Shown piece by piece: positions 4,580 to 54,010 of a stretch of DNA of 64,000 nucleotides. The notes below the pieces were generated by a model. That model was not told the origin of the DNA and made no database searches. It was given only the letters and a program-made list of their open reading frames with translations. The translations under genes and the position numbers were made by a program. This DNA comes from Candidatus Buchananbacteria bacterium (GTDB lineage Bacteria > Patescibacteriota > Patescibacteriia > 2-01-FULL-39-33): assembly GCA_030650095.1 (NCBI GenBank), contig JAUSEE010000007.1:16812-80811 (forward strand), read 5' to 3'. The number at the start of each line of letters is the position of its first letter. The first letter of the stretch is position 1.

Positions 4580-5611
4580 TTAAGGTACGTCAGTATTGGT
4601 GTTAGTATCAATTGGTTCGGTTATCAACTTAAAATTCCTAATAATCATTTCAAAGACCGAGGGATAGCGGAATTCAGACATATTATCCAAATCATATTCA
4701 AAAGCATAAATCTTATCTCTTTTTTGATCGGTAATATAAATGCCCAGATTATTAGGCGAACGCACACCCTTGAAATTGCCGAATTCTATGTTGCCCAATT
4801 GGCCTAAGGTGATTTGGGGATGATTTAACAAATACCAATTAGCGGCTGAAATCTGATCATCATTGCTTATGACAGAAATTTTTATCATCTCCCCTGTGCC
4901 CGTAATTATCCTGGCCTCATGCAAAGCTTCAATCAAACTGACAGACCAACCCTTGATATAAAGCGTTTGAAAATTATTAGTTGGAAAATTAGTGCTTAAC
5001 TTACTGATGAAAGCCGCCTCCGCTAAAAGAAAGGGATTGCCGCTGCTGGGACTGACAATTGGATTATAACCTCCAATAAACTCATCGCTGTCCAAATAAC
5101 CGTCTAAATCGGAATCAGGCGAACTGGGCGAAGAACCGATTAAGGCTTCTTCTAAATCGGTTAGCTTGTCCTTATCGGCATCACCGCTCAACGCGGGCGG
5201 CACCAAATCATTAATGTTGCTATTAGTGTTTCCATTGGTATTAGTATTGGCATTAGTATTTATATTTTCATTCGTATTAAGATTGCCATTTTCATTGGTG
5301 TTGCTGTTTTCATTAACATTAATATTTCTATTTTCATTCTCATTGGTATTAATGTTTTGATTGGTAAAAGTTATATTTTGATTAGCCAATTGATTGGTTG
5401 AGTCCTGATTATTTTGCAGCGTATTGTACATAAAATAAGACACCGAAGAAACCACTATCAGTAGCAGAATAATCACCACTATGGCCAAGGCCTTATTGGA
5501 AGAACGCTGGGCTTTCTGGGGATGAAATTTTTCCGGCATAACATAAACATCCTCTTGGGAAGGGGCGGGTAAATTAGCAGGCATGATATTATCTTTTTTA
5601 GAGCCAAACAT
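4580..5611 (-). CDS. Membrane-anchored protein with an Asn/Thr-rich low-complexity tract, an Asp-rich (DSDLDGYLDSDE) segment and a C-terminal globular domain; function unknown
   Basis: One N-terminal TM helix (AIVVIILLLIVVSSVSYFMY) followed by NTNENxN repeats. The gene lies 3 nt downstream of the next gene in the cluster. Confidence 0.5.
   Translation of the reverse strand: MFGSKKDNIMPANLPAPSQEDVYVMPEKFHPQKAQRSSNKALAIVVIILLLIVVSSVSYFMYNTLQNNQDSTNQLANQNITFTNQNINTNENENRNINVNENSNTNENGNLNTNENINTNANTNTNGNTNSNINDLVPPALSGDADKDKLTDLEEALIGSSPSSPDSDLDGYLDSDEFIGGYNPIVSPSSGNPFLLAEAAFISKLSTNFPTNNFQTLYIKGWSVSLIEALHEARIITGTGEMIKISVISNDDQISAANWYLLNHPQITLGQLGNIEFGNFKGVRSPNNLGIYITDQKRDKIYAFEYDLDNMSEFRYPSVFEMIIRNFKLITEPIDTNTNTDVP
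5200..5400. repeat. Imperfect codon-level AAT/ACx microsatellite-like tract encoding Asn/Thr repeats
   Basis: Reiterated aat/aac/act/gaa triplets on the coding strand within the 343-aa protein gene. Confidence 0.6.
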
Positions 5612-5646
5612 AATACTTAATCTATTTATAAATATAAAATTTTAAA

Positions 5647-6396
5647 TTAGGGCACATTAAACAGCCTGGCGCCGCCGCCTTTAGCCGGATCAAAGCCGTT
5701 TACAACTTCGTCGCCATCATTATAACCATCGCCATCGGTATCTTTTTTAAGCGGATCAGTATTGTAAATCCTAACCTCTACCCGATCAATCAAGCCATCG
5801 CCATCGGTATCAAAATTATTAGGATTGGTGCCTAATTGTTTTTCTTCTTCATCACTTAGACCGTCATTATCACTGTCTGGGCCAAGAGAAACATTGGCAT
5901 TGGCATTGGCATTTGTTTCGGCGTTAATATTAGCATTTTCATTGGCATTGGCATTGCCATTTGTTTCGGTATTGGTATTAGCGTTAGCTTCGGTATTGGT
6001 ATTGACATTAGTATTTATATTGGCGTTTAAATTGGCATCGGGGCCTGATGTTTTGGAAGTAAAGAAACTGACAGCGGCGAAGACTACTCCGCCGATTATA
6101 GCTAGGCCGATTAAAGATAGAAGCACTACCAGAGCTTTATTTTGAAACATAGAACGGCCGCCAAAAACATCGGGACTAACTGCCATCTGAGAAGCTTGGC
6201 CTGGTTGCATTGGACGAGAAATCCGAGGCGATGAGGGCGTTTCGGTTTCAGAAAAAATATCCTCCACCTGGGGCGGTCTGGGAACTGCCGGAGCAGGTTT
6301 AATCCTGTCATCTGGCAAGTTCAGAGGCGGCGGTGATTGCTTTCTGGGTTCACTGGGCATGGGGCCTGATGGCGCCATAGGGTTTTGATCAAACAT
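5647..6396 (-). CDS. Single-pass membrane protein with a Pro-rich cytoplasmic N-terminus, an N/T/A-rich extracellular tract and C-terminal TSP3-like Asp-rich Ca-binding repeats; function unknown
   Basis: Pro-rich stretch PPPLNLPDDRIKPAPAVPRPP, TM helix LVVLLSLIGLAIIGGVVFAAV, NANANTNT repeats and the motif DTDGDGLID..DTDGDGYNDGDE. Confidence 0.5.
   Translation of the reverse strand: MFDQNPMAPSGPMPSEPRKQSPPPLNLPDDRIKPAPAVPRPPQVEDIFSETETPSSPRISRPMQPGQASQMAVSPDVFGGRSMFQNKALVVLLSLIGLAIIGGVVFAAVSFFTSKTSGPDANLNANINTNVNTNTEANANTNTETNGNANANENANINAETNANANANVSLGPDSDNDGLSDEEEKQLGTNPNNFDTDGDGLIDRVEVRIYNTDPLKKDTDGDGYNDGDEVVNGFDPAKGGGARLFNVP
5880..6060. repeat. Codon-level tandem repeat tract (GCN-AAT / ACN-AAT) encoding Ala/Asn/Thr repeats
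   Basis: Reiterated ggcattggcattggcatt-type units within the 249-aa protein gene. Confidence 0.6.
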
Positions 6397-16389: not shown

Positions 16390-19302
16390 CTATGGTTTGG
16401 GCACGCAAGTTCCAAAACAACAACCCGTACTGCCATCGCCTAAAACAGTTGAATGATCTTTGGTAATAATCCAACTACCGCCTAAATCTGTCGTGGTGGC
16501 ACTCTCATCATAATATAAAACCTTGCAAAAATTATCTGTCGAATCGCATTCATTGGCGTTTTCTATTTCCGGACAATTTAAATAACCATAAGAAGCCGGA
16601 TTAGTGGGCAAAACCGGAGCGCAACCAGCCGATAAGGCGTACCCGTTATAACTGCAGATCTGTCCTGATTTAGCAGCTTCTTTGGGGCCAGCGCTAGGCA
16701 GAAAACAATTCTGGCTGATTGATTGGAGGCCAGAACCGGCCAGCGGGCCATATTTGGTGGCTAAATCAAAATCATTATGGTTTAAGCTAGCCTTGGTAAA
16801 ATCAGCCCAGCCGTCGAAATTTTGATCCAAATCATTTTTTAAAGACCAATAGCCGACCGGCACAGCTGATTCGCTGATGGTTTGTAAAACCAAATATCTG
16901 ACTGATTTTTCCTTTGGAGTAGAACCGTAATTCCAACCTGGTTTTAGGGTAGAACTGCGCATCAATCTATCAAAGCTAAAATCAACTTTAGTTTTCGGGC
17001 TGTTAATTTGATCATCACCTACCGGTTCATCGGTTTTAAGCAGCGGAGCCTTTTTGTCTATCTCGCTGGAAATATTAAATGACCAGGAAAAATTATCACC
17101 GAAACCACTAAGGCCAAAAGCCGGAGTTGATGAACCGTAGCTTACCACTCTTGACCCAGGAGCAGAACAATCGCCTGGCTGGCAGATTATGCCTAAATTC
17201 AAATCATACTTACTGCGTCCGGATTTGCCTTCGCCACTGCCTGATTGACCTTGGGCAATGCCTATGGTTTTATTATTGTATTGATAAGTGTCAAAACTGC
17301 CGTTGAAAGCATTAAAACTCATATCCACCAGGCCGTTCATTTGCGGAGATAAAGGATAAAATACTTGCTTGCCATCAACAGTCTTAAGACAGCGGCCATG
17401 GCCATCACTTATTCCGCCCCAAGCCGAACATTTGGCGTCACTGGCGTTCATCAGGGTAGCCGAAGAAATCTCTACCTCATAAGGCTGGGCATTGCCAGAA
17501 ACCGGCCAACAGAACATAGTATCGCCGCAGCTATTTGTGCCACATTCATCGGGAGCCACCAGTTCTATCGTTTTATATTGATTGGATATTTCCACTGTAT
17601 AGCCGGTAATTGCAACACCAGCTCTTTTGACAATGATGCTATCTTCTATAACCGACGGATTAACCGCTTCATTGAAATTAATTTGAATGATTGTATTCCT
17701 ATAAGCGTCAGGCAGACCATTGGGCTCGCGATTCGGCTGCTGATCTTGGCCATTAGTTTTAGTAATAACGAAGTTGCTACTGGTGCCGATGAAATTTAGA
17801 TTATATTTAGCGGTAGCGGCGCCAGTCTGCTTGGTTTGAACGCAGTTAGCCCCGCAAGTTTCAAATAGATTGGTATCACTTATTAATTTATCATCAAAAC
17901 CGGCTGGATTAGGAATATCGGTGCCAAAAGTGTAGGTTTTAATAGTAGTGCTATTATCTTTAAGTTCCAATTTATCTCCATCTTGGTGAGCCACGACATT
18001 AAAAGTCCAAGAATTGCCACGGGCCACGACACCATCAGCATTAAAGACCAAGCCGTACGGACCTATATTCAAAATGGCTCCAGGCGGATCAAATTGGCCG
18101 CTGTTAAATGTGCCCATAGTTCCTGGCCAAGTGGTTTTTATTTCTCCAGTGCCGGAATCAACCCTAACTGTAACCAAGCCGGTAGCTGTACCGCCATAGT
18201 TGCCAGTAATGATTCCGGAAATAGTAGTGCCGCCCCCCTTAACAGCAGTACTATCGAAGGACGACAATGTTTCTAATCTAATATTAGCCAGAGTTAGAGC
18301 CACGGAAAATTGAGTGGCTGTCGGGCCGGAGGCCACGCCATAATCATCCAGCAAATCATCTGGGTAAGGATAAACACCAGCTAGATTAATAATTTCGGGC
18401 GGATCCAAATCTAATTCTCCATTAGTGGTAAATTGCCAAGCGTACTCTTCATTAAATAAGTTATCAAAGACTGATTTACCAGGCTCAGCCACGGTTTCTA
18501 TGCCTGACTTTAGATTGACCTTAAACCTCCGGTTGGCAAAATCTTCTAAGCCCAGATATTTATTTGGTATGATAGTAAATGTTCTGTCGTCATTACTGTC
18601 CACTATGCTGCCGGAAAAGGCGCCAACAGAAAATTCTTCGCCTTCTTCCTGACAGATGCCGTTATTATCAACTTGGCAGATTTCTATATTGGTCATGGCC
18701 GTATCAGTGCCGTTACAAACAGCCGCTCCACAGATAGTCTGGGGATTAATTTTTTCCTTGAAAGTCACAGCAATAGCGGTATTAATCGGCACATCAACTT
18801 GCCCCGGAGACGGATAAACGCTTTCAATCGGTCCTACGCCAATGCCCCAACGGCCCAAATCGCCAGGACCGCCGCCACCATGGCCATAGTCGCCACCGCC
18901 ACCAAAACCAGCCAAGATACCAATAATAAAAGCGGTTATAATATAGGATGATAAAATAATAATTATGCCGATAACCGTGTTAATCAGTATTTTTTTGGCT
19001 TTCTCAATTTTAGCCGGGTCACCGCCGGAAGTCATCCAAACAAATCCGCCATAAAGCACCATAATAACCGCAAAGATGCCTAAAAATCCCAAGATAAGTT
19101 GGATAATCCGAACAATAGCTACTCTTAAATCATTTTGAGGCAAGCCGATAGCCGCCGCATCAGCCAAGCCAAAACGGTTTGGAGCTTGAGCCAAGCCTAC
19201 ACTGGGCAAAATTAAGAGTAAAAAAAACGCCAAGAAAGATACCAAGAGTACTCTTTTGGCGATTTTCGACTTCTGCATGGATGAAAGCCGTGGACTAAAC
19301 AT
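16390..19302 (-). CDS. Large (970 aa) secreted, membrane-anchored surface protein with the same VirB2/TrbC-pilin-like N-terminal module, a Gly-rich linker, multiple beta-rich extracellular domains and a Cys-rich C-terminus
   Basis: N-terminus: ...SVGLAQ APNRFGL..AAAIGLPQNDLR..LILGFLGIFAVIMVLYGGFVWMTSGGDPAKIEKAKK..VIGIIIILSSY. Gly-rich linker GGGGDYGHGGGGPGD. The gene ends 9 nt upstream of the 3310-aa gene. Confidence 0.75.
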   Translation of the reverse strand: MFSPRLSSMQKSKIAKRVLLVSFLAFFLLLILPSVGLAQAPNRFGLADAAAIGLPQNDLRVAIVRIIQLILGFLGIFAVIMVLYGGFVWMTSGGDPAKIEKAKKILINTVIGIIIILSSYIITAFIIGILAGFGGGGDYGHGGGGPGDLGRWGIGVGPIESVYPSPGQVDVPINTAIAVTFKEKINPQTICGAAVCNGTDTAMTNIEICQVDNNGICQEEGEEFSVGAFSGSIVDSNDDRTFTIIPNKYLGLEDFANRRFKVNLKSGIETVAEPGKSVFDNLFNEEYAWQFTTNGELDLDPPEIINLAGVYPYPDDLLDDYGVASGPTATQFSVALTLANIRLETLSSFDSTAVKGGGTTISGIITGNYGGTATGLVTVRVDSGTGEIKTTWPGTMGTFNSGQFDPPGAILNIGPYGLVFNADGVVARGNSWTFNVVAHQDGDKLELKDNSTTIKTYTFGTDIPNPAGFDDKLISDTNLFETCGANCVQTKQTGAATAKYNLNFIGTSSNFVITKTNGQDQQPNREPNGLPDAYRNTIIQINFNEAVNPSVIEDSIIVKRAGVAITGYTVEISNQYKTIELVAPDECGTNSCGDTMFCWPVSGNAQPYEVEISSATLMNASDAKCSAWGGISDGHGRCLKTVDGKQVFYPLSPQMNGLVDMSFNAFNGSFDTYQYNNKTIGIAQGQSGSGEGKSGRSKYDLNLGIICQPGDCSAPGSRVVSYGSSTPAFGLSGFGDNFSWSFNISSEIDKKAPLLKTDEPVGDDQINSPKTKVDFSFDRLMRSSTLKPGWNYGSTPKEKSVRYLVLQTISESAVPVGYWSLKNDLDQNFDGWADFTKASLNHNDFDLATKYGPLAGSGLQSISQNCFLPSAGPKEAAKSGQICSYNGYALSAGCAPVLPTNPASYGYLNCPEIENANECDSTDNFCKVLYYDESATTTDLGGSWIITKDHSTVLGDGSTGCCFGTCVPKP

Positions 19303-34078: not shown

Positions 34079-34154
34079 TGGTCGGAATAGATGGATTTGG
34101 ACCACCGTCCTCTCTGCACCGGGCAGAGCGCTCTACGAGCTGAGCTATATCCAG
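34079..34154 (-). tRNA. tRNA-like gene with anticodon CGG (Pro-like) and a non-canonical anticodon loop (C33, U37); CCA encoded
   Basis: Reverse complement: CTGGATA TA GCTC AGCTCGTA GAGC G CTCTG CCCGGTG CAGAG AGGAC GGTGG TCCAAAT CCATC TATTCCG A CCA. The anticodon stem is perfect but the loop is CCCGGTG, and there is one acceptor mismatch at 2:71. Confidence 0.5.
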
Positions 34155-42487: not shown

Positions 42488-42678
42488 ATAGATACTATTA
42501 TACCATAACAATAATTAAAAATACAAAATAATAAATTATAAATATAAAATTACAAAAAACAAAAAATCATAATAATTAAAAAACAAAAAAATTAATATTT
42601 TAATTTATAATGTGCCATTTATCTGCCTGAAAGCTAGCAAATTTGGGGCTTGGAATTTTGTGTTTTAATTTTAAAATG

Positions 42679-42699
42679 TTGTGATAATACATATCACAA
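42679..42699. promoter_or_regulatory. Perfect inverted repeat TTGTGATA-atac-aTATCACAA (candidate operator) 15 nt upstream of the tRNA-operon -35 box
   Basis: 8-bp arms with a 5-bp spacer inside an AT-rich region with no ORF, between parA and tRNA-fMet. Confidence 0.4.
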
Positions 42700-42714
42700 T
42701 CTTACCATCAACCC

Positions 42715-42742
42715 TTGCCAAAAATACAAATATCTGTTACAA
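42715..42742 (+). promoter_or_regulatory. Sigma70-like promoter of the tRNA-fMet/Ile2/Leu cluster
   Basis: TTGCCA, a 16-nt spacer and TACAAT. The predicted +1 falls at or near the mature tRNA 5' end (42748). Confidence 0.55.
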
Positions 42743-42747
42743 TTACT

Positions 42748-42819
42748 CCGCGGGGTAGAGCAGTAGCAGCTCGCCAGGCCCATAACCTGGAGGTCGTGGG
42801 TGCGAATCCCACCTCCGCA
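42748..42819 (+). tRNA. Initiator tRNA-fMet (anticodon CAU); the 3' CCA is not encoded (ACAA)
   Basis: CGCGGGG TA GAGC AGTAGCA GCTC G CCAGG CCCATAA CCTGG AGGTC GTGGG TGCGAAT CCCAC CTCCGCA A. It has the C1/A72 mismatch and is closely similar to E. coli tRNA-fMet. Unusual features are C33 and G55. Confidence 0.75.
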
Positions 42820-42924
42820 ACAAGTGGCTCTTGAATTAATCAAGACATGGCAAAAAAACAGAGATAATTATTTGTACGCGGTAATTCGCACGGGCAGAAG
42901 CAAGATGAGCCTATGGGCGAAATC

Positions 42925-42971
42925 GAGCGTCGATAAATACGAGCAAGCGCGAGTATTTAGCGCTGCCCAGG
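42925..42971 (+). repeat. tRNA-associated hairpin repeat, copy 1
   Basis: GAGCGTCGA-TAAATAC-gagcaagcgcga-GTATTTA-GCGCTGCCCAGG. It lies within the 150-nt spacer between tRNA-fMet and the duplicated fMet 3' end. Confidence 0.8.
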
Positions 42972-42975
42972 ACAA

Positions 42976-42995
42976 GAATCCCACCTCCGCAACAA
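42976..42995 (+). repeat. Direct duplication (20 nt) of the tRNA-fMet 3' end (GAATCCCACCTCCGCAACAA)
   Basis: Identical to 42803..42822. It is followed at 42999..43027 by a perfect 12-bp-stem hairpin, AATCGCTCGCTC ttat GAGCGAGCGATT. Confidence 0.85.
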
Positions 42996-43029
42996 ATACC
43001 AATCGCTCGCTCTTATGAGCGAGCGATTT

Positions 43030-43101
43030 GGCAGGGTAGCTCAGTGGTAGAGCAGCGGACTCATAAGCCGTTGGTCGCGGGTTCAACTCCCGCCCCTGCT
43101 A
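43030..43101 (+). tRNA. tRNA with anticodon CAU, most similar to tRNA-Ile2 (lysidine) but possibly elongator Met; CCA not encoded (ACAA)
   Basis: GGCAGGG TA GCTC AGTGGTA GAGC A GCGGA CTCATAA GCCGT TGGTC GCGGG TTCAACT CCCGC CCCTGCT A. The variable loop TGGTC and the T-arm match E. coli ileX. Confidence 0.7.
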
Positions 43102-43213
43102 CAAGGAAAGTATTTTAAAACACATTACTGAAGTATTAATATTAAAAACAAATAATACTGGCGGGAGTTGAACGGGCAGAAACGAATCAAGCCGAACTTA
43201 GTGAGGCGAAGAT

Positions 43214-43260
43214 GAGTGTCGATAAATGCGAGCAAGTGCGAGTATTTAGCGCTGCCCAGG
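43214..43260 (+). repeat. tRNA-associated hairpin repeat, copy 2
   Basis: GAGTGTCGA-TAAATGC-gagcaagtgcga-GTATTTA-GCGCTGCCCAGG. The G/U wobble is tolerated only in a plus-strand RNA fold. Confidence 0.8.
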
Positions 43261-43292
43261 GCGAGGAAATCAGGCGAAGCCTGATGACGAGA

Positions 43293-43325
43293 TCCCGCCC
43301 CTGCTACAAGGAAAGTATTTTAAAA
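43293..43325 (+). repeat. Direct duplication (33 nt) of the tRNA-CAU 3' end plus 19 nt of downstream flank
   Basis: TCCCGCCCCTGCTACAAGGAAAGTATTTTAAAA, identical to 43088..43120. Confidence 0.85.
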
Positions 43326-43354
43326 GAATTATTAAGTTATTAATATTACTTTAA

Positions 43355-43436
43355 GCCGAAGTGGCGGAATTGGTAGACGCGCACGACTCAAAATCGTGTA
43401 TCGCAAGATGTGAGAGTTCGATTCTCTCCTTCGGCA
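43355..43436 (+). tRNA. tRNA-Leu (anticodon CAA); CCA not encoded
   Basis: GCCGAAG TG GCGGAATTGGTAGACGC ... CACGA CTCAAAA TCGTG, with a long variable arm, GAGAGTTCGATTCTCTC and CTTCGGC A. Confidence 0.85.
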
Positions 43437-43511
43437 TAATAACAGACTAATCTTTTTTTTATTATTTTAAATCTGCTATAATAATCTTATTATACTTTTA
43501 ACCTTAAATAT

Positions 43512-50870: not shown

Positions 50871-51374
50871 ATGAAACAGAAACCAACTGATATTACCAAA
50901 AAGAAAATTAACCGGCCAAGCAAGACTATCGCTACTAATAAAGAAGGTTTGTTCAATTATGAAATAATCGAAAAATATCAAGCCGGATTGGTCCTAAGCG
51001 GACCAGAAGTAAAAGCAGCCAAGCTGGGACAAATGAGCTTAAAAGGCTCTTATGTGACCATAGACAATAACAGCGAAGTTTGGCTGATAAAATCCTACAT
51101 CACGCCGTACAAGCCGGCCAAAAGCGCCCAGGCCAAATATGATCCGGGCCAGAAAAGAAAGCTGCTTTTGCACAAAGAAGAAATAAGCTCGCTCCTAGGC
51201 AAAAGCAAACAAAAAGGCTTGACAATTATACCAATAAATGTATATACTAAGAGAGGATTAATAAAAGCTGATATTGCCCTGGCCCGAGGTAAGACCAAGA
51301 TTGATAAAAGGGAAACCATCAAGAAACGGGAGGCCAGCCGGGAAATAGCCAGAACATTAAAACAAAGGGTTTAA
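50871..51374 (+). CDS. smpB: SsrA-binding protein SmpB
   Basis: Motif TIATNKEGLFNYEIIEKYQAGLVLSGPEVKAAKLGQMSLKGSYV and a basic C-terminal tail. Confidence 0.9.
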   Translation: MKQKPTDITKKKINRPSKTIATNKEGLFNYEIIEKYQAGLVLSGPEVKAAKLGQMSLKGSYVTIDNNSEVWLIKSYITPYKPAKSAQAKYDPGQKRKLLLHKEEISSLLGKSKQKGLTIIPINVYTKRGLIKADIALARGKTKIDKRETIKKREASREIARTLKQRV

Positions 51375-51763
51375 GGGGATGTATTGTTTCGATGGGAGGC
51401 CTTAAATTTGAAGTTAGCAGGACGAGATTGGCACTTGCTCGCAAACTAAATGCCAAAGCACATAAGTGCAAACAACTTTTTAAGCAAAGTAAAATCTGCC
51501 TTTGGTGGATTTGCTTTCGCTCCTGCTGTTGCTTAATTGCTTAACAGCCATCGCCCTGCCCACGCCTAGGTAGGCAAGAAGCGGTGTTATAACTCTAGGA
51601 CAGATAGGCCAGTCTATTCGAACAGGCCTATTTAAATTATTTCGAATAAAGCCGAATCTGTTTTGTTCTTTTAATAGGATCCGGCTAAAAAAATAAAAGA
51701 AATAATCTTGTACACTGACTTTTGATTTACTTCCAGACAGGAGCTCATTACTCCTCATCTCCA
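51375..51763 (+). ncRNA. ssrA: tmRNA (ssrA), starting on the nucleotide after the smpB stop codon. The predicted tag reading frame ends ...FGGFAFAPAVA-TAA. The 3' end lacks an encoded CCA.
   Basis: 5' end GGGGATGTATTGTTTCGATGGGAGG (compare E. coli GGGGCTGATTCTGGATTCGACGGGA). Internal ORF gca aac aac ttt tta agc ... gct gtt gct taa. The 3' T-arm-like AGGAG-ctcatta-CTCCT precedes CATCTCC, which pairs with the 5' GGGGATG. Confidence 0.7.
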
Positions 51764-51809
51764 CTAAGTAATTAGCAGGCATTAATAAATAATTTTTATA
51801 ACACAGCCG

Positions 51810-52996: not shown

Positions 52997-53021
52997 AAAA
53001 CCGCCCGGGAGGCGGTTTTTG
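52997..53021 (+). terminator. Rho-independent terminator after rplT
   Basis: AAAACCGCC cggga GGCGGTTTTT. Confidence 0.85.
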
Positions 53022-53031
53022 CGTCTATCTA

Positions 53032-53060
53032 TTGACTTTTGCGCCGTTTAATGATAAAAT
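53032..53060 (+). promoter_or_regulatory. Sigma70-like promoter (extended -10) upstream of the tRNA-Asp locus
   Basis: TTGACT, a 17-nt spacer and tgaTAAAAT. The transcript would include the two tRNA-Asp 5' fragments and the intact gene. Confidence 0.5.
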
Positions 53061-53114
53061 CATATTTGATACTTAGATTAAGTATTTTTTATTTAAAATA
53101 TTTAAAAACACTTT

Positions 53115-53169
53115 GGAGACGTAGCTTCCGCCTCGGCTTCGCCTTAGGCGAGACGGGCAGCTGGTTAGA
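53115..53169 (+). pseudogene. tRNA-Asp 5' fragment A, carrying a 31-nt insertion in the D-loop
   Basis: GGAGACGTAGCT-[tccgcctcggcttcgccttaggcgagacggg]-CAGCTGGTTAGA, then sequence unrelated to the tRNA. Confidence 0.6.
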
Positions 53170-53213
53170 ATACATTGGCGGAATCAAATAAAGTCACTTA
53201 ATTTCATACATTT

Positions 53214-53288
53214 GGAGACATAGCTTCCGCCTCGGCTTCGCCTTAGGCGAGACGGGCAGCTGGTTAGAGCGCTTCCCTGTCACGGAAG
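53214..53288 (+). pseudogene. tRNA-Asp 5' fragment B (through the anticodon arm) with the same 31-nt D-loop insertion and the same 14-nt upstream flank as the intact gene
   Basis: aatttcatacattt GGAGACATAGCT-[31 nt]-CAGCTGGTTAGAGCGCTTCCCTGTCACGGAAG, then it diverges into the insert carrying hairpin-repeat copy 3. Confidence 0.6.
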
Positions 53289-53339
53289 AGGGTTGCGTAG
53301 CAACGGGTAGAAGCGAGCTAGGAGCTATGCGACTACAGC

Positions 53340-53385
53340 GAGCGTCGATGAATGCGAAAAAAATGAGCATTCAGCGCTACCCCGG
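53340..53385 (+). repeat. tRNA-associated hairpin repeat, copy 3
   Basis: GAGCGTCGA-TGAATGC-gaaaaaaatga-GCATTCA-GCGCTACCCCGG. Both stem positions that differ from copy 1 changed in a compensatory way. Confidence 0.75.
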
Positions 53386-53429
53386 AACGAGGGTTTCCCT
53401 CGACTGGACAATTTAATTTTCATACATTT

Positions 53430-53503
53430 GGAGACGTAGCTCAGCTGGTTAGAGCGCTTCCCTGTCACGGAAGTGGTCGAGGGTTCAAGTCCCTTCGTCT
53501 CCG
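53430..53503 (+). tRNA. tRNA-Asp (anticodon GUC); CCA not encoded
   Basis: GGAGACG TA GCTC AGCTGGTTA GAGC G CTTCC CTGTCAC GGAAG TGGTC GAGGG TTCAAGT CCCTT CGTCTCC G. Confidence 0.85.
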
Positions 53504-53513
53504 CGAATAATTA

Positions 53514-53541
53514 TAAAAACCACCCTTGCGGTGGTTTTTAT
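53514..53541. terminator. Bidirectional rho-independent terminator after tRNA-Asp
   Basis: AAAAA CCACC cttgc GGTGG TTTTTAT. Confidence 0.8.
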
Positions 53542-53545
53542 AATT

Positions 53546-54010
53546 TTATTCAGACTTTATATCGACGGCGTTTTGTAAAGTTTTTTCAAACACGGCCGCC
53601 GCAGTAGCGATGACGACGGAAATAAAAGTAGCCAAAATACCTATGGTGATAAAGCCCGCCGGATCGTCATCTTTATTATGAAATATCCTGATGTATAGTG
53701 CTGCCATTACAATTGAGATACTCAGTATGATTGCGCAATATTTTATAATCCTTAAAGCTTTCACCGAGCTTAGTGAGAATACTTTGTTTTGCCCGATGTA
53801 TCTGAGTAATTTAAACGCTTGATACAGCGCAACAAAAAATGGGATAGACGCTATGTACATATACATTATGAACGGATCAGAGTAAATGCTAAACAGGTCT
53901 AAGTTTACGGCTCTCCCCTCAGTCAGAGGAAATTGAATCATGACAAAGAGCACCAAGATGCCGATGAGTACAATGACTGCCTGAAGAAATATTATTGAGC
54001 CTCGTTTCAT
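53546..54010 (-). CDS. Hypothetical 4-TM membrane protein
   Basis: ORF with hydrophobic helices. Confidence 0.4.
   Translation of the reverse strand: MKRGSIIFLQAVIVLIGILVLFVMIQFPLTEGRAVNLDLFSIYSDPFIMYMYIASIPFFVALYQAFKLLRYIGQNKVFSLSSVKALRIIKYCAIILSISIVMAALYIRIFHNKDDDPAGFITIGILATFISVVIATAAAVFEKTLQNAVDIKSE

Follow-up and report, generated by a model that had tools for sequence, protein, structure and literature searches.

Why should an intact tRNA-Asp gene be preceded, within its own transcription unit, by two truncated copies of its 5' half that are both interrupted by the same 31 nucleotides? The question is raised by a 64,000-nt stretch of a Candidatus Buchananbacteria genome (assembly GCA_030650095.1, contig JAUSEE010000007.1, forward-strand positions 16,812 to 80,811; hereafter the window, whose first nucleotide is position 1), for which a reading made from the sequence alone had also pointed to a third copy of a hairpin repeat inside the same locus. 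We report here that this hairpin repeat appears to be an undescribed, widespread structured element that is tailored to the adjoining tRNA, and that it appears to have produced the fragments. Sequences other than the window are designated by L numbers.

The structured element and its tRNA-matched flanks

The window contains three copies of the element (42878-42979, 43160-43268, and 53291-53393), with a common core and visible compensatory changes. The core is about 110 nt long (150-170 nt with the flanks) and carries no open reading frame (ORF). It folds as a three-way junction made of helix P1, of helix P2 with a tandem G.A motif beside a perfectly covarying 2-bp step, and of a 10-bp helix P3 with a conserved A.G. 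Strong support for this fold comes from a covariation test on a structure-independent MAFFT alignment of 35 element copies, in which 93.9% of the alignment cells pair (vs. 30-42% with slid partners), 14 of the 21 base pairs show changes on both sides, and 131 cells are compensatory, against 39.6 in shuffles. As G.U pairs outnumber A.C combinations (60 vs. 23), the tRNA-sense strand is favoured as the folded strand, and the folded molecule is thus probably tRNA-sense RNA.

A covariance model (R1) was built from 35 seeds, which include the two window copies located next to tRNA-Met genes and leave out the copy of the tRNA-Asp locus. It detects exactly three copies in the window, among them the tRNA-Asp copy (69.7 bits, E = 6e-15), and the third hairpin-repeat copy of the sequence-only reading is thereby confirmed. 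Overall, R1 detects 91 copies in 68 mostly Patescibacteria sources, with tandem arrays of up to 5-6 copies. Similarly, one pattern scan of species-representative genomes yielded 64 loci, nearly all from Patescibacteria (Moran-, Uhr-, Kerfeld-, Doudna-, Taylor-, Buchanan-, and Paceibacteria); a few element-bearing metagenome-assembled genomes carry the submitter labels Bdellovibrionales or Gammaproteobacteria. Viral contigs gave no match to two element patterns. Searches against Rfam 15 at gathering and permissive thresholds (window regions, L043, L011, L045, and 12 further loci) returned only tRNA, transfer-messenger RNA (tmRNA), and chance or miRNA-like hairpins. No published description of the element was found in a full-text literature search, the closest paper being concerned with group I introns at position 35/36 of Patescibacteria tRNAs (PMC13011429).

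The genomic locations of the copies tie them to tRNA genes. Within 700 nt upstream of 54 of the 75 pattern-matched copies lies a tRNA gene on the same strand, most of these tRNAs ending 65-120 nt upstream, and the tRNAs beside elements cover 15 amino-acid specificities. Both flanks of the element follow the sequence of the neighbouring tRNA. The 5' flank, located just before P1, is antisense to the tRNA from G53 through the T-loop and the 3' strand of the T-stem, sometimes to the 3' end (hereafter the anti-T segment), with a median exact match of 12 nt, against 6 nt for non-cognate tRNAs. In most cases the 3' flank is a second copy of the tRNA sequence that starts at A58 and reaches the 3' end (about 19 nt), or sometimes continues beyond, with a median match of 14.5 nt (vs. 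6 nt for non-cognate tRNAs). Even unusual T-loops are mirrored in the elements, as in the pairs TGCGAAT/ATTCGCA, TTCAAGT/ACTTGAA (L002), and TTCAACT/AGTTGAA. The first of these pairs is found in the window, where the initiator-type tRNA-Met (42749-42821, + strand) has the T-loop TGCGAAT, with a G at the place of the conserved U55, and where ATTCGCA in the adjoining element mirrors it exactly. The anti-T segment would pair with the T-arm of the tRNA. Moreover, the spacer between tRNA and element is often an intrinsic terminator, so that a single long hairpin with interruptions is made up of the 3' half of the T-arm, this terminator, and the anti-T segment.

The two tRNA-Met loci of the window have the following elements:

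42878-42995, + strand: element after tRNA-fMet (84.9 bits), in which the anti-T-loop segment ATTCGCAC is followed by the core and by 20 nt (42976-42995) that repeat the 3' end of the tRNA
43160-43325, + strand: element after tRNA-Met(CAU) (94 bits), in which a 14-nt anti-T segment (GGCGGGAGTTGAAC) precedes the core and a P4 hairpin, and the last 33 nt (43293-43325) repeat the 3' end of the tRNA with its trailer

The whole transcript of the second locus folds in silico into an anti-T hairpin, the core, and an acceptor stem that is closed by the downstream repeat (z = -5.4). The sequence-only reading had regarded the hairpin repeat as a passenger within an insert, a view that is contradicted both by its wide distribution as a structured element and by flanks matching the host tRNA.

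Another locus combines the same flank logic with a different core. In L065 (about 6000-6180, - strand), an anti-T-like ...TTTGAAC and GAAATCC followed by a tRNA 3'-end repeat are found 3' of tRNA-Thr(GGT). As the core of this element is missed by R1, its presence suggests that sister families exist.

The tRNA-Asp locus and its fragments

The tRNA-Asp locus mirrors the two Met loci, as had been recognized from the sequence alone, with a duplication of the 5' part of the tRNA instead of the 3' part. It is organized as follows:

53032-53060, + strand: sigma-70-type promoter of the tRNA-Asp unit, TTGACT-17-TAAAAT with an extended -10 TG; an orthologous promoter precedes tRNA-Asp in L075, L076, L003, L002, and L199
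53115-53169, + strand: fragment A, tRNA-Asp positions 1-12, the 31-nt hairpin, and positions 13 to about 24 (GGAGACGTAGCT + 31 nt + CAGCTGGTTAGA); ancestral gene start according to the promoter/leader alignment of relatives
53127-53157, + strand: copy 1 of a GC-rich palindromic mini-insertion, TCCGCCTCG...CGAGACGGG (exact repeat, hairpin fold, termini common to L034, L013, L053/L063, and L065)
53200-53213, + strand: shortened, duplicated leader piece ahead of copy B, with AATTTCATACATTT directly 5' of fragment B
53214-53288, + strand: copy B (fragment B), tRNA-Asp positions 1-43, which include one G>A change and are interrupted by the 31-nt insertion, extending through the anticodon-stem GGAAG; dead 5' copy
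53226-53256, + strand: copy 2 of the GC-rich palindromic mini-insertion, identical to copy 1 (exact repeat)
53289-53304, + strand: junction hairpin, AGGGTT (T-stem 5' strand plus TT) GC-GTA-GCAAC; equivalents are GTTCAG/CTGAAC in L064 and GTTCTGG/CCAGAAC in L073
53305-53382, + strand: three-way-junction core with P1 GGGTAG/CTACCC, P2 with the tandem G.A motif, and the 10-bp P3 (covariance-model match 53291-53393, covariation)
53383-53409, + strand: post-core linker CGGAA, then CGAGGGTT-TCCCTCG ACTGGAC, the decayed remains of the T-arm and 3' end of the pseudo-copy
53410-53429, + strand: duplicated leader piece ahead of the intact gene
53430-53504, + strand: intact tRNA-Asp(GTC), the sole functional copy at the locus (ARAGORN; Rfam, 71.2 bits)
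53509-53545, + strand: terminator-like inverted repeat 3' of tRNA-Asp with 16-nt arms (inner stem 53519-53532, scored on the - strand by the pattern scan)

Every sequence statement previously made about the two partial tRNA-Asp copies and their identical interruption holds, and so does the description of a good promoter upstream and of an intact tRNA-Asp without the 31-mer downstream. Only 53430-53504 is called as a tRNA by ARAGORN and Rfam RF00005, neither of which calls fragments A and B. In a pattern scan, no terminator-like site was found between the promoter and the terminator-like hairpin of tRNA-Asp, in agreement with the proposed location of the fragments and the repeat inside the tRNA transcription unit. 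The two fragments have 58 nt in common, at 98% identity, and are 99 nt apart.

Which of these copies marks the original gene? The promoter and the leader up to fragment A align with those up to tRNA-Asp position 1 in the five relatives listed above for the promoter, indicating that fragment A marks the ancestral gene start. By contrast, the shortened leader piece that is common to copy B and the intact gene differs from the leader ahead of fragment A. The trailer of the intact gene is similar to that of L199.

The sequence-only reading had placed a crossover in the anticodon stem. However, copy B goes on past GGAAG with AGGGTT, which corresponds to tRNA positions 50-55, 6 nt having been lost before it, and a decayed T-arm is found 3' of the element (CCCCGGAA, then CGAGGGTT-TCCCTCG ACTGGAC). 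The two flanking pieces point to an element located within the T-arm region of a whole tRNA-Asp pseudo-copy, and fragments A and B are ordinary decay products, i.e., dead remnants at the tRNA insertion site of the element. The junction hairpin reads GTTGC-GTA-GCAAC, and its 3' strand GCAAC replaces the anti-T-loop segment (...GAAC) of other copies. The 5'-duplicated layout is the rarer form, which recurs at tRNA-Gly in L064 and L010 and at tRNA-Ile in L073, the piece 3' of the core in L073 reproducing 13 nt of the T-arm exactly. A metagenome scan with a pattern specific to this form returned one locus, L073.

The 31-mer itself (TCCGCCTCGGCTTCGCCTTAGGCGAGACGGG) occurs exactly twice in the window, at 53127-53157 and 53226-53256 (0 of 100 shuffles matched). 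It splits both fragments between GTAGCT and CAGCTGG, and its predicted hairpin prolongs the flanking AGCU/AGCU pairing. It is absent at the equivalent position in the closest relatives, namely L075 and L076 (92% identity for the ribosomal protein L20) and L003 (L20 90%), as well as from the other 5'-duplicated loci (L064, L010, and L073). The sequence-only reading had proposed to check whether any full-length tRNA carries the 31-mer; none was found, the 31-mer being confined to the two truncated copies and missing both in the intact gene and in relatives. The termini CCGCCTCG...CGAG(A/G)CGG recur in hairpins at six independent sites in 572 kb of Candidate Phyla Radiation (CPR) loci. Such GC-rich palindromic hairpins are embedded in AT-rich CPR DNA at L013 5283-5325, L034 393-436, L053 3501-3540, L063 2664-2703, and L065 5978-6013. 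The L034 hairpin is inserted in the P2 loop of another element copy and shows the same TCCGCCTCG...CGAGACGGG, followed by CAG, as the window; two hairpins (L053/L063 and L065) are located within 3' repeats at the T-stem/acceptor junction, and the L013 hairpin within an intergenic spacer. Similar but different GC hairpins break up elements in L029, L033, L059, and L035.

The most economical reading is that the 31-mer is a secondary insertion of a GC-rich palindromic mini-hairpin into a dead copy, and not a tRNA intron; it would have come to be present in both A and B through local duplication or gene conversion. Homology to the other hairpins would be based mainly on the C.A mismatch and termini common to the window, L034, and L013. 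The evidence for it is moderate, as the GC-hairpin pattern has more than 120 matches on viral contigs: the motif is unspecific and frequent in GC-rich DNA, which weakens the claim of a family. The D-loop intron or donor-tRNA feature envisaged from the sequence alone is unlikely, given the absence of the 31-mer from L075, L076, L003, and the other 5'-duplicated loci, and the recurrence of its termini elsewhere. An archaeal-type bulge-helix-bulge tRNA intron was rejected because both junctions lie in one continuous helix with single-base bulges in the predicted fold; the bacterial nature of the host, in which tmRNA and smpB are present, is a further point against it. The conspicuous D-loop insertion of the window is no evidence for bacterial D-loop introns. 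The tmRNA is of the one-piece standard type (51375-51766, + strand, 113.7 bits) and lies directly 3' of smpB (50871-51374, + strand).

Origin of the locus and rival explanations

A 100% match for L20 identifies the window organism as a Candidatus Buchananbacteria (Patescibacteria) metagenome-assembled genome, and its relatives make it possible to compare empty and filled sites. L199 (L20 82% identical) carries rplT, promoter, leader, tRNA-Asp, and terminator without the element, and thus represents an empty site. In L002 (L20 88%), the trailer ATAAAAACTCCCGtGATGaG, located 3' of the partial repeat, matches the native trailer of L199. This native-type trailer (ATAAAAACTCCCG.GATG) is located 3' of the partial copy and not of the intact tRNA, whose own trailer is unrelated to that of L199. 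The partial copy is therefore the ancestral 3' end, with a break in the T-loop. The DNA inserted in L002 thus consists of a replacement for positions 58-76 with its own terminator, the anti-T segment, the core, and a hairpin. Direct repeats of the tRNA 3' end measure 18 nt in L002 and 20 nt and 33 nt at the window Met loci. L005 has the same form as L002, plus an 81-aa GIY-YIG ORF in its long loop. As L074, L077, and L198 have no tRNA-Asp after rplT, they are uninformative for this comparison. Finally, the contigs of four relatives (L003, L004, L075, and L076) and a Logan contig of the window organism (L001) end inside the tRNA-Asp 5' part after rplT. Contigs from five samples ending there are consistent with a duplication of the tRNA-Asp 5' part in those relatives too.

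The explanation that we favour, and consider rather probable, is that a mobile or formerly mobile element recombines at the T-loop via a tRNA-derived handle, and that it is tolerated since an intact tRNA remains beside most copies, one side of the tRNA gene being duplicated. That the element is or was mobile, and that it spreads by recombination at the T-loop using this handle, is what we infer from the sites described above. The tRNA-Asp locus would then be a scar left where this small structured element, which has no ORF, became inserted in the T-loop region of the tRNA gene. In the common form, represented by both Met loci, the order is intact tRNA, spacer or terminator, anti-T-loop/T-stem segment, core, hairpin, and repeat of the last 19 nt or so of the tRNA. 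In the Asp form, the native promoter and leader are followed by fragment A, which marks the ancestral start, and by copy B, in which positions 1-43 adjoin positions 50-55. A short hairpin stands in for the long anti-T pairing, and behind it come the core, the decayed T-arm/3' remnant, the duplicated leader piece, the intact tRNA-Asp, and a native-type terminator. The functional tRNA-Asp has to be cut out of a leader of about 370 nt, presumably by RNase P. At least two rounds of duplication or insertion are needed to explain the locus, with deletion probably coming after them. Repeated rearrangement at the tRNA gene, as already proposed from the sequence alone, is thus retained.

Several observations weigh against this explanation. 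The evidence for movement consists of one empty site and of the multi-copy, tandem distribution, with no transposition or recombination enzyme identified. The structure and the unpaired junction bases are strongly conserved across several CPR lineages, which might just as well reflect a host function. The 3' repeat is missing from some copies (L043, L020, and L061), and others are solo copies with no adjoining tRNA (L063, L032, L045, and L016). Many copies are located behind an intrinsic terminator (L002, L043, L017, L049, and L058), which makes their expression as RNA uncertain. Lastly, the loss of about 6 nt (positions ~44-49) is uniform in all four 5'-duplicated loci and looks selected rather than decayed.

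A bolder version, which we put forward only tentatively and consider unlikely to be correct, is that the element represents a new class of tRNA-targeting RNA, in which a three-way-junction scaffold with a programmable anti-T-loop guide inserts in tRNA genes or transcripts, or swaps in a spare 3' part. The system would then be of the ribozyme or RNA-guided kind, and would work as a T-loop intron or as a module for tRNA repair or replacement.

Somewhat less probable still is a host-beneficial cis-acting RNA, which pairs with or mimics the T-arm/acceptor of the adjoining tRNA and might signal its processing, sense its folding or quality, or serve as an antisense or decoy RNA specific to it; the Asp locus would represent a variant whose 5' domain is tRNA-like. 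The covariation and the conserved junction nucleotides across many CPR lineages speak for such an RNA, as does the retention of the element at tRNA-Asp in the window, L002, and L005 despite L20 identities of 82-88%, and the anti-T segment and 3' repeat together form a helix of T-stem and acceptor sequence. The uniform 6-nt loss also fits a host RNA, as does the L073 locus, whose 5' copy plus hairpin scores 44 bits as a tRNA. The distinct tRNA-like leader RNA that the sequence-only reading offered as an alternative may likewise apply to the architecture of copy B in itself, found in four genomes. A host function is nevertheless difficult to reconcile with the tRNA-Asp of L199, which does without the element, with tandem arrays of up to 5-6 copies, with a set of element-carrying tRNAs that differs between genomes, with copies full of secondary insertions and truncated repeats, and with the terminators often found between element and tRNA.

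We give even less credit to an intron-like catalytic or guide RNA, in which the anti-T segment would be an internal guide at the T-loop and the core would catalyse or direct cleavage and ligation, the outcome being either excision as a T-loop intron or replacement of the tRNA 3' part by the downstream repeat. The guide-like segment does span both sides of position 57/58, in the 5'-to-3' order of a group I internal guide, and in the predicted fold of the full transcript, the downstream repeat closes a tRNA that carries a giant insertion in its T-loop. In the L005 repeat, both substitutions stay wobble-compatible with the acceptor 5' strand. However, Rfam gave no ribozyme or intron match, even at E <= 10, the size of the core is far below that of a group I core, a U.G is missing from the putative 5' site, the tRNA upstream is complete as it stands, and some copies have no repeat. 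The distribution of GIY-YIG ORFs bears on the same question. One copy has such an ORF in its long loop, overlapping the anti-T segment, as homing-endonuclease genes of introns do. Nevertheless, a GIY-YIG ORF is found inside the element only in L005/L006, i.e., in 1 of about 66 distinct loci, and small GIY-YIG ORFs adjoin element-bearing tRNAs in only four or five loci. Those located beside element-bearing tRNAs encode 79-98 aa (minus orientation for the last):

L005 4053-4298: GIY-YIG ORF in the long loop of the element
L031 724-1021: GIY-YIG ORF just 5' of the tRNA
L048 1672-1912: GIY-YIG ORF just 5' of the tRNA
L036 5861-6116, minus orientation: GIY-YIG ORF just 5' of the tRNA

None was detected in the window with tblastn. 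With this placement, inside the element only in L005/L006 and upstream of the tRNA in L031/L036/L048, GIY-YIG was rejected as an integral partner of the element.

Integrase-type recombination at the tRNA, the model of the sequence-only reading, appears improbable. Serial integration and loss of islands would have left attachment-site (att) remnants, the repeat being island-end DNA. This model accounts for inserts flanked by direct repeats of tRNA ends and for the supply of a replacement 3' end, as attP sites provide, and the T-loop break coincides with a known integrase sublocation. On the other hand, the inserts are merely 120-180 nt long, the repeat is a covarying fold and not a set of arm-type binding sites, and att sites contain nothing comparable to the anti-T segment. 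Near the window copies, where Pfam identifies ParA, ParB, GT4, DUF2975, PurD, and SmpB in flanking ORFs, there is no integrase or transposase, and neighbourhood clustering linked neither a recombinase nor any other protein family to the element, no family being present in more than 8 of 66 loci.

Finally, a mis-assembled tandem tRNA-Asp array or a mixture of strain variants is very improbable: the relatives' short-read contigs and the second contig of the organism all break in the repeated 5' part, but every window junction is unique sequence, the same architecture was independently assembled in L064, L010, and L073, and Logan contig SRR13727527 (not known to be a different sample) is identical to the window from rplT to the middle of the 31-mer of fragment A, where it ends, which reproduces the leader-fragment A-31-mer junction exactly and argues against a mis-join there.

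Other observations concern the surroundings of the elements. The gene order AI-2E transporter, smpB, tmRNA, infC, rpmI, and rplT is kept in relatives, and an exact-match look-up of the downstream DUF2975 protein was empty. A motif pair, GGGGCGGAATTCCCCCC.GACCCCCCTTCCGCCCCGCC then a AAATAGGTTCGGATTTCGTT-like motif, is found upstream of elements in L035 and L066, L051 having the second motif only. Elsewhere in the window, Rfam reports a weak tRNA (34082-34154, - strand, 37.5 bits) between tRNA-Leu(TAA) and tRNA-Cys, which is not reported by ARAGORN and may represent an unusual or degenerate tRNA. At 5200-6040, degenerate GCATTGGTATTA-like repeats with periods of 6, 12, and 18 nt form long arrays, which presumably correspond to a repetitive coding region on the minus strand.

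If the family is as it appears, it represents a new resident of tRNA genes in extremely reduced genomes, which is tiny, protein-less, and folded, with ends fitted to each host tRNA. It would account for the pseudo-fragments of tRNAs, the contigs that break at tRNA loci, and the long leaders of tRNAs seen in CPR assemblies, and the covariance model can be used by annotators to mask such regions. It also makes a question testable: can an RNA of about 110 nt with a T-loop guide direct tRNA insertion, excision, or 3'-end replacement without a dedicated enzyme?

Comparison with known systems

A few known classes were considered and rejected. A group I intron is not supported, as RF00028 gave no match at E <= 10 (window 53000-53560 and 42650-43460, and L011), at E <= 1 (L043), or at gathering score (12 loci); a complete tRNA adjoins 54 of the 75 pattern-matched copies, which makes splicing unneeded, and copy B has no usable 3' half. 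Self-cleaving ribozymes (hammerhead, twister, pistol, hatchet, and hepatitis delta virus) are not among the Rfam matches at E <= 10, and a hammerhead-like CUGAUGA in the second Met copy lies within a hairpin stem and has no model match. A transposon of the miniature inverted-repeat transposable element (MITE) type is excluded by flanks that are tRNA-specific instead of fixed inverted repeats, and by a repeat length ranging from 0 to more than 30 nt. A 5S rRNA likeness of CGAAC..UCAGAAGUGAAAC in L011 was likewise discarded, RF00001 giving no match at E <= 10 (L011 2590-2790). The resemblance of CGAAC(AG)GTCAGAAGTGAAAC (L011 2600-2640 and other copies) to the E. coli 5S rRNA segment CGAACUCAGAAGUGAAAC, for which the Rfam 5S model also has no match, is presumably a coincidence.

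As in integrase-type tRNA elements, the insertion lies in the tRNA 3' half, a replacement 3' end keeps the gene intact, and the displaced native 3' end forms a direct repeat. Unlike them, the element is only about 150 nt long, without genes or integrase, has a covarying three-way junction and a segment antisense to the T-arm, and shows a 5'-duplicating mirror form and tandem arrays. With the tRNA group I introns of Patescibacteria, it shares the nature of a structured RNA element in tRNA genes of the same phylum, a mostly ORF-less organization with an occasional GIY-YIG ORF in a loop, and a guide-like segment complementary to both sides of the insertion point. It differs from them in its lack of an Rfam group I match, its core of about 110 nt, its location at the T-loop and not the anticodon loop, and a host tRNA that is complete without splicing.

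MITEs, repetitive extragenic palindromic (REP) sequences, and Rickettsia palindromic elements likewise occur in multiple short copies that fold strongly and lack ORFs, vary in their presence between orthologous sites, and are tolerated inside RNA genes or transcription units. The ends of our element, however, are copied from the adjoining tRNA instead of being fixed inverted repeats, its unpaired internal bases are conserved, its covariation is RNA-like, and it is almost exclusively associated with tRNAs. Lastly, RNase P external guide sequences, omega RNA, and bridge RNA also combine a scaffold with target-tracking flanks, the target being here the adjoining tRNA, a likeness of architecture only; in contrast to these RNAs, the element has no partner protein gene linked to it, and its guide matches the adjacent gene itself.

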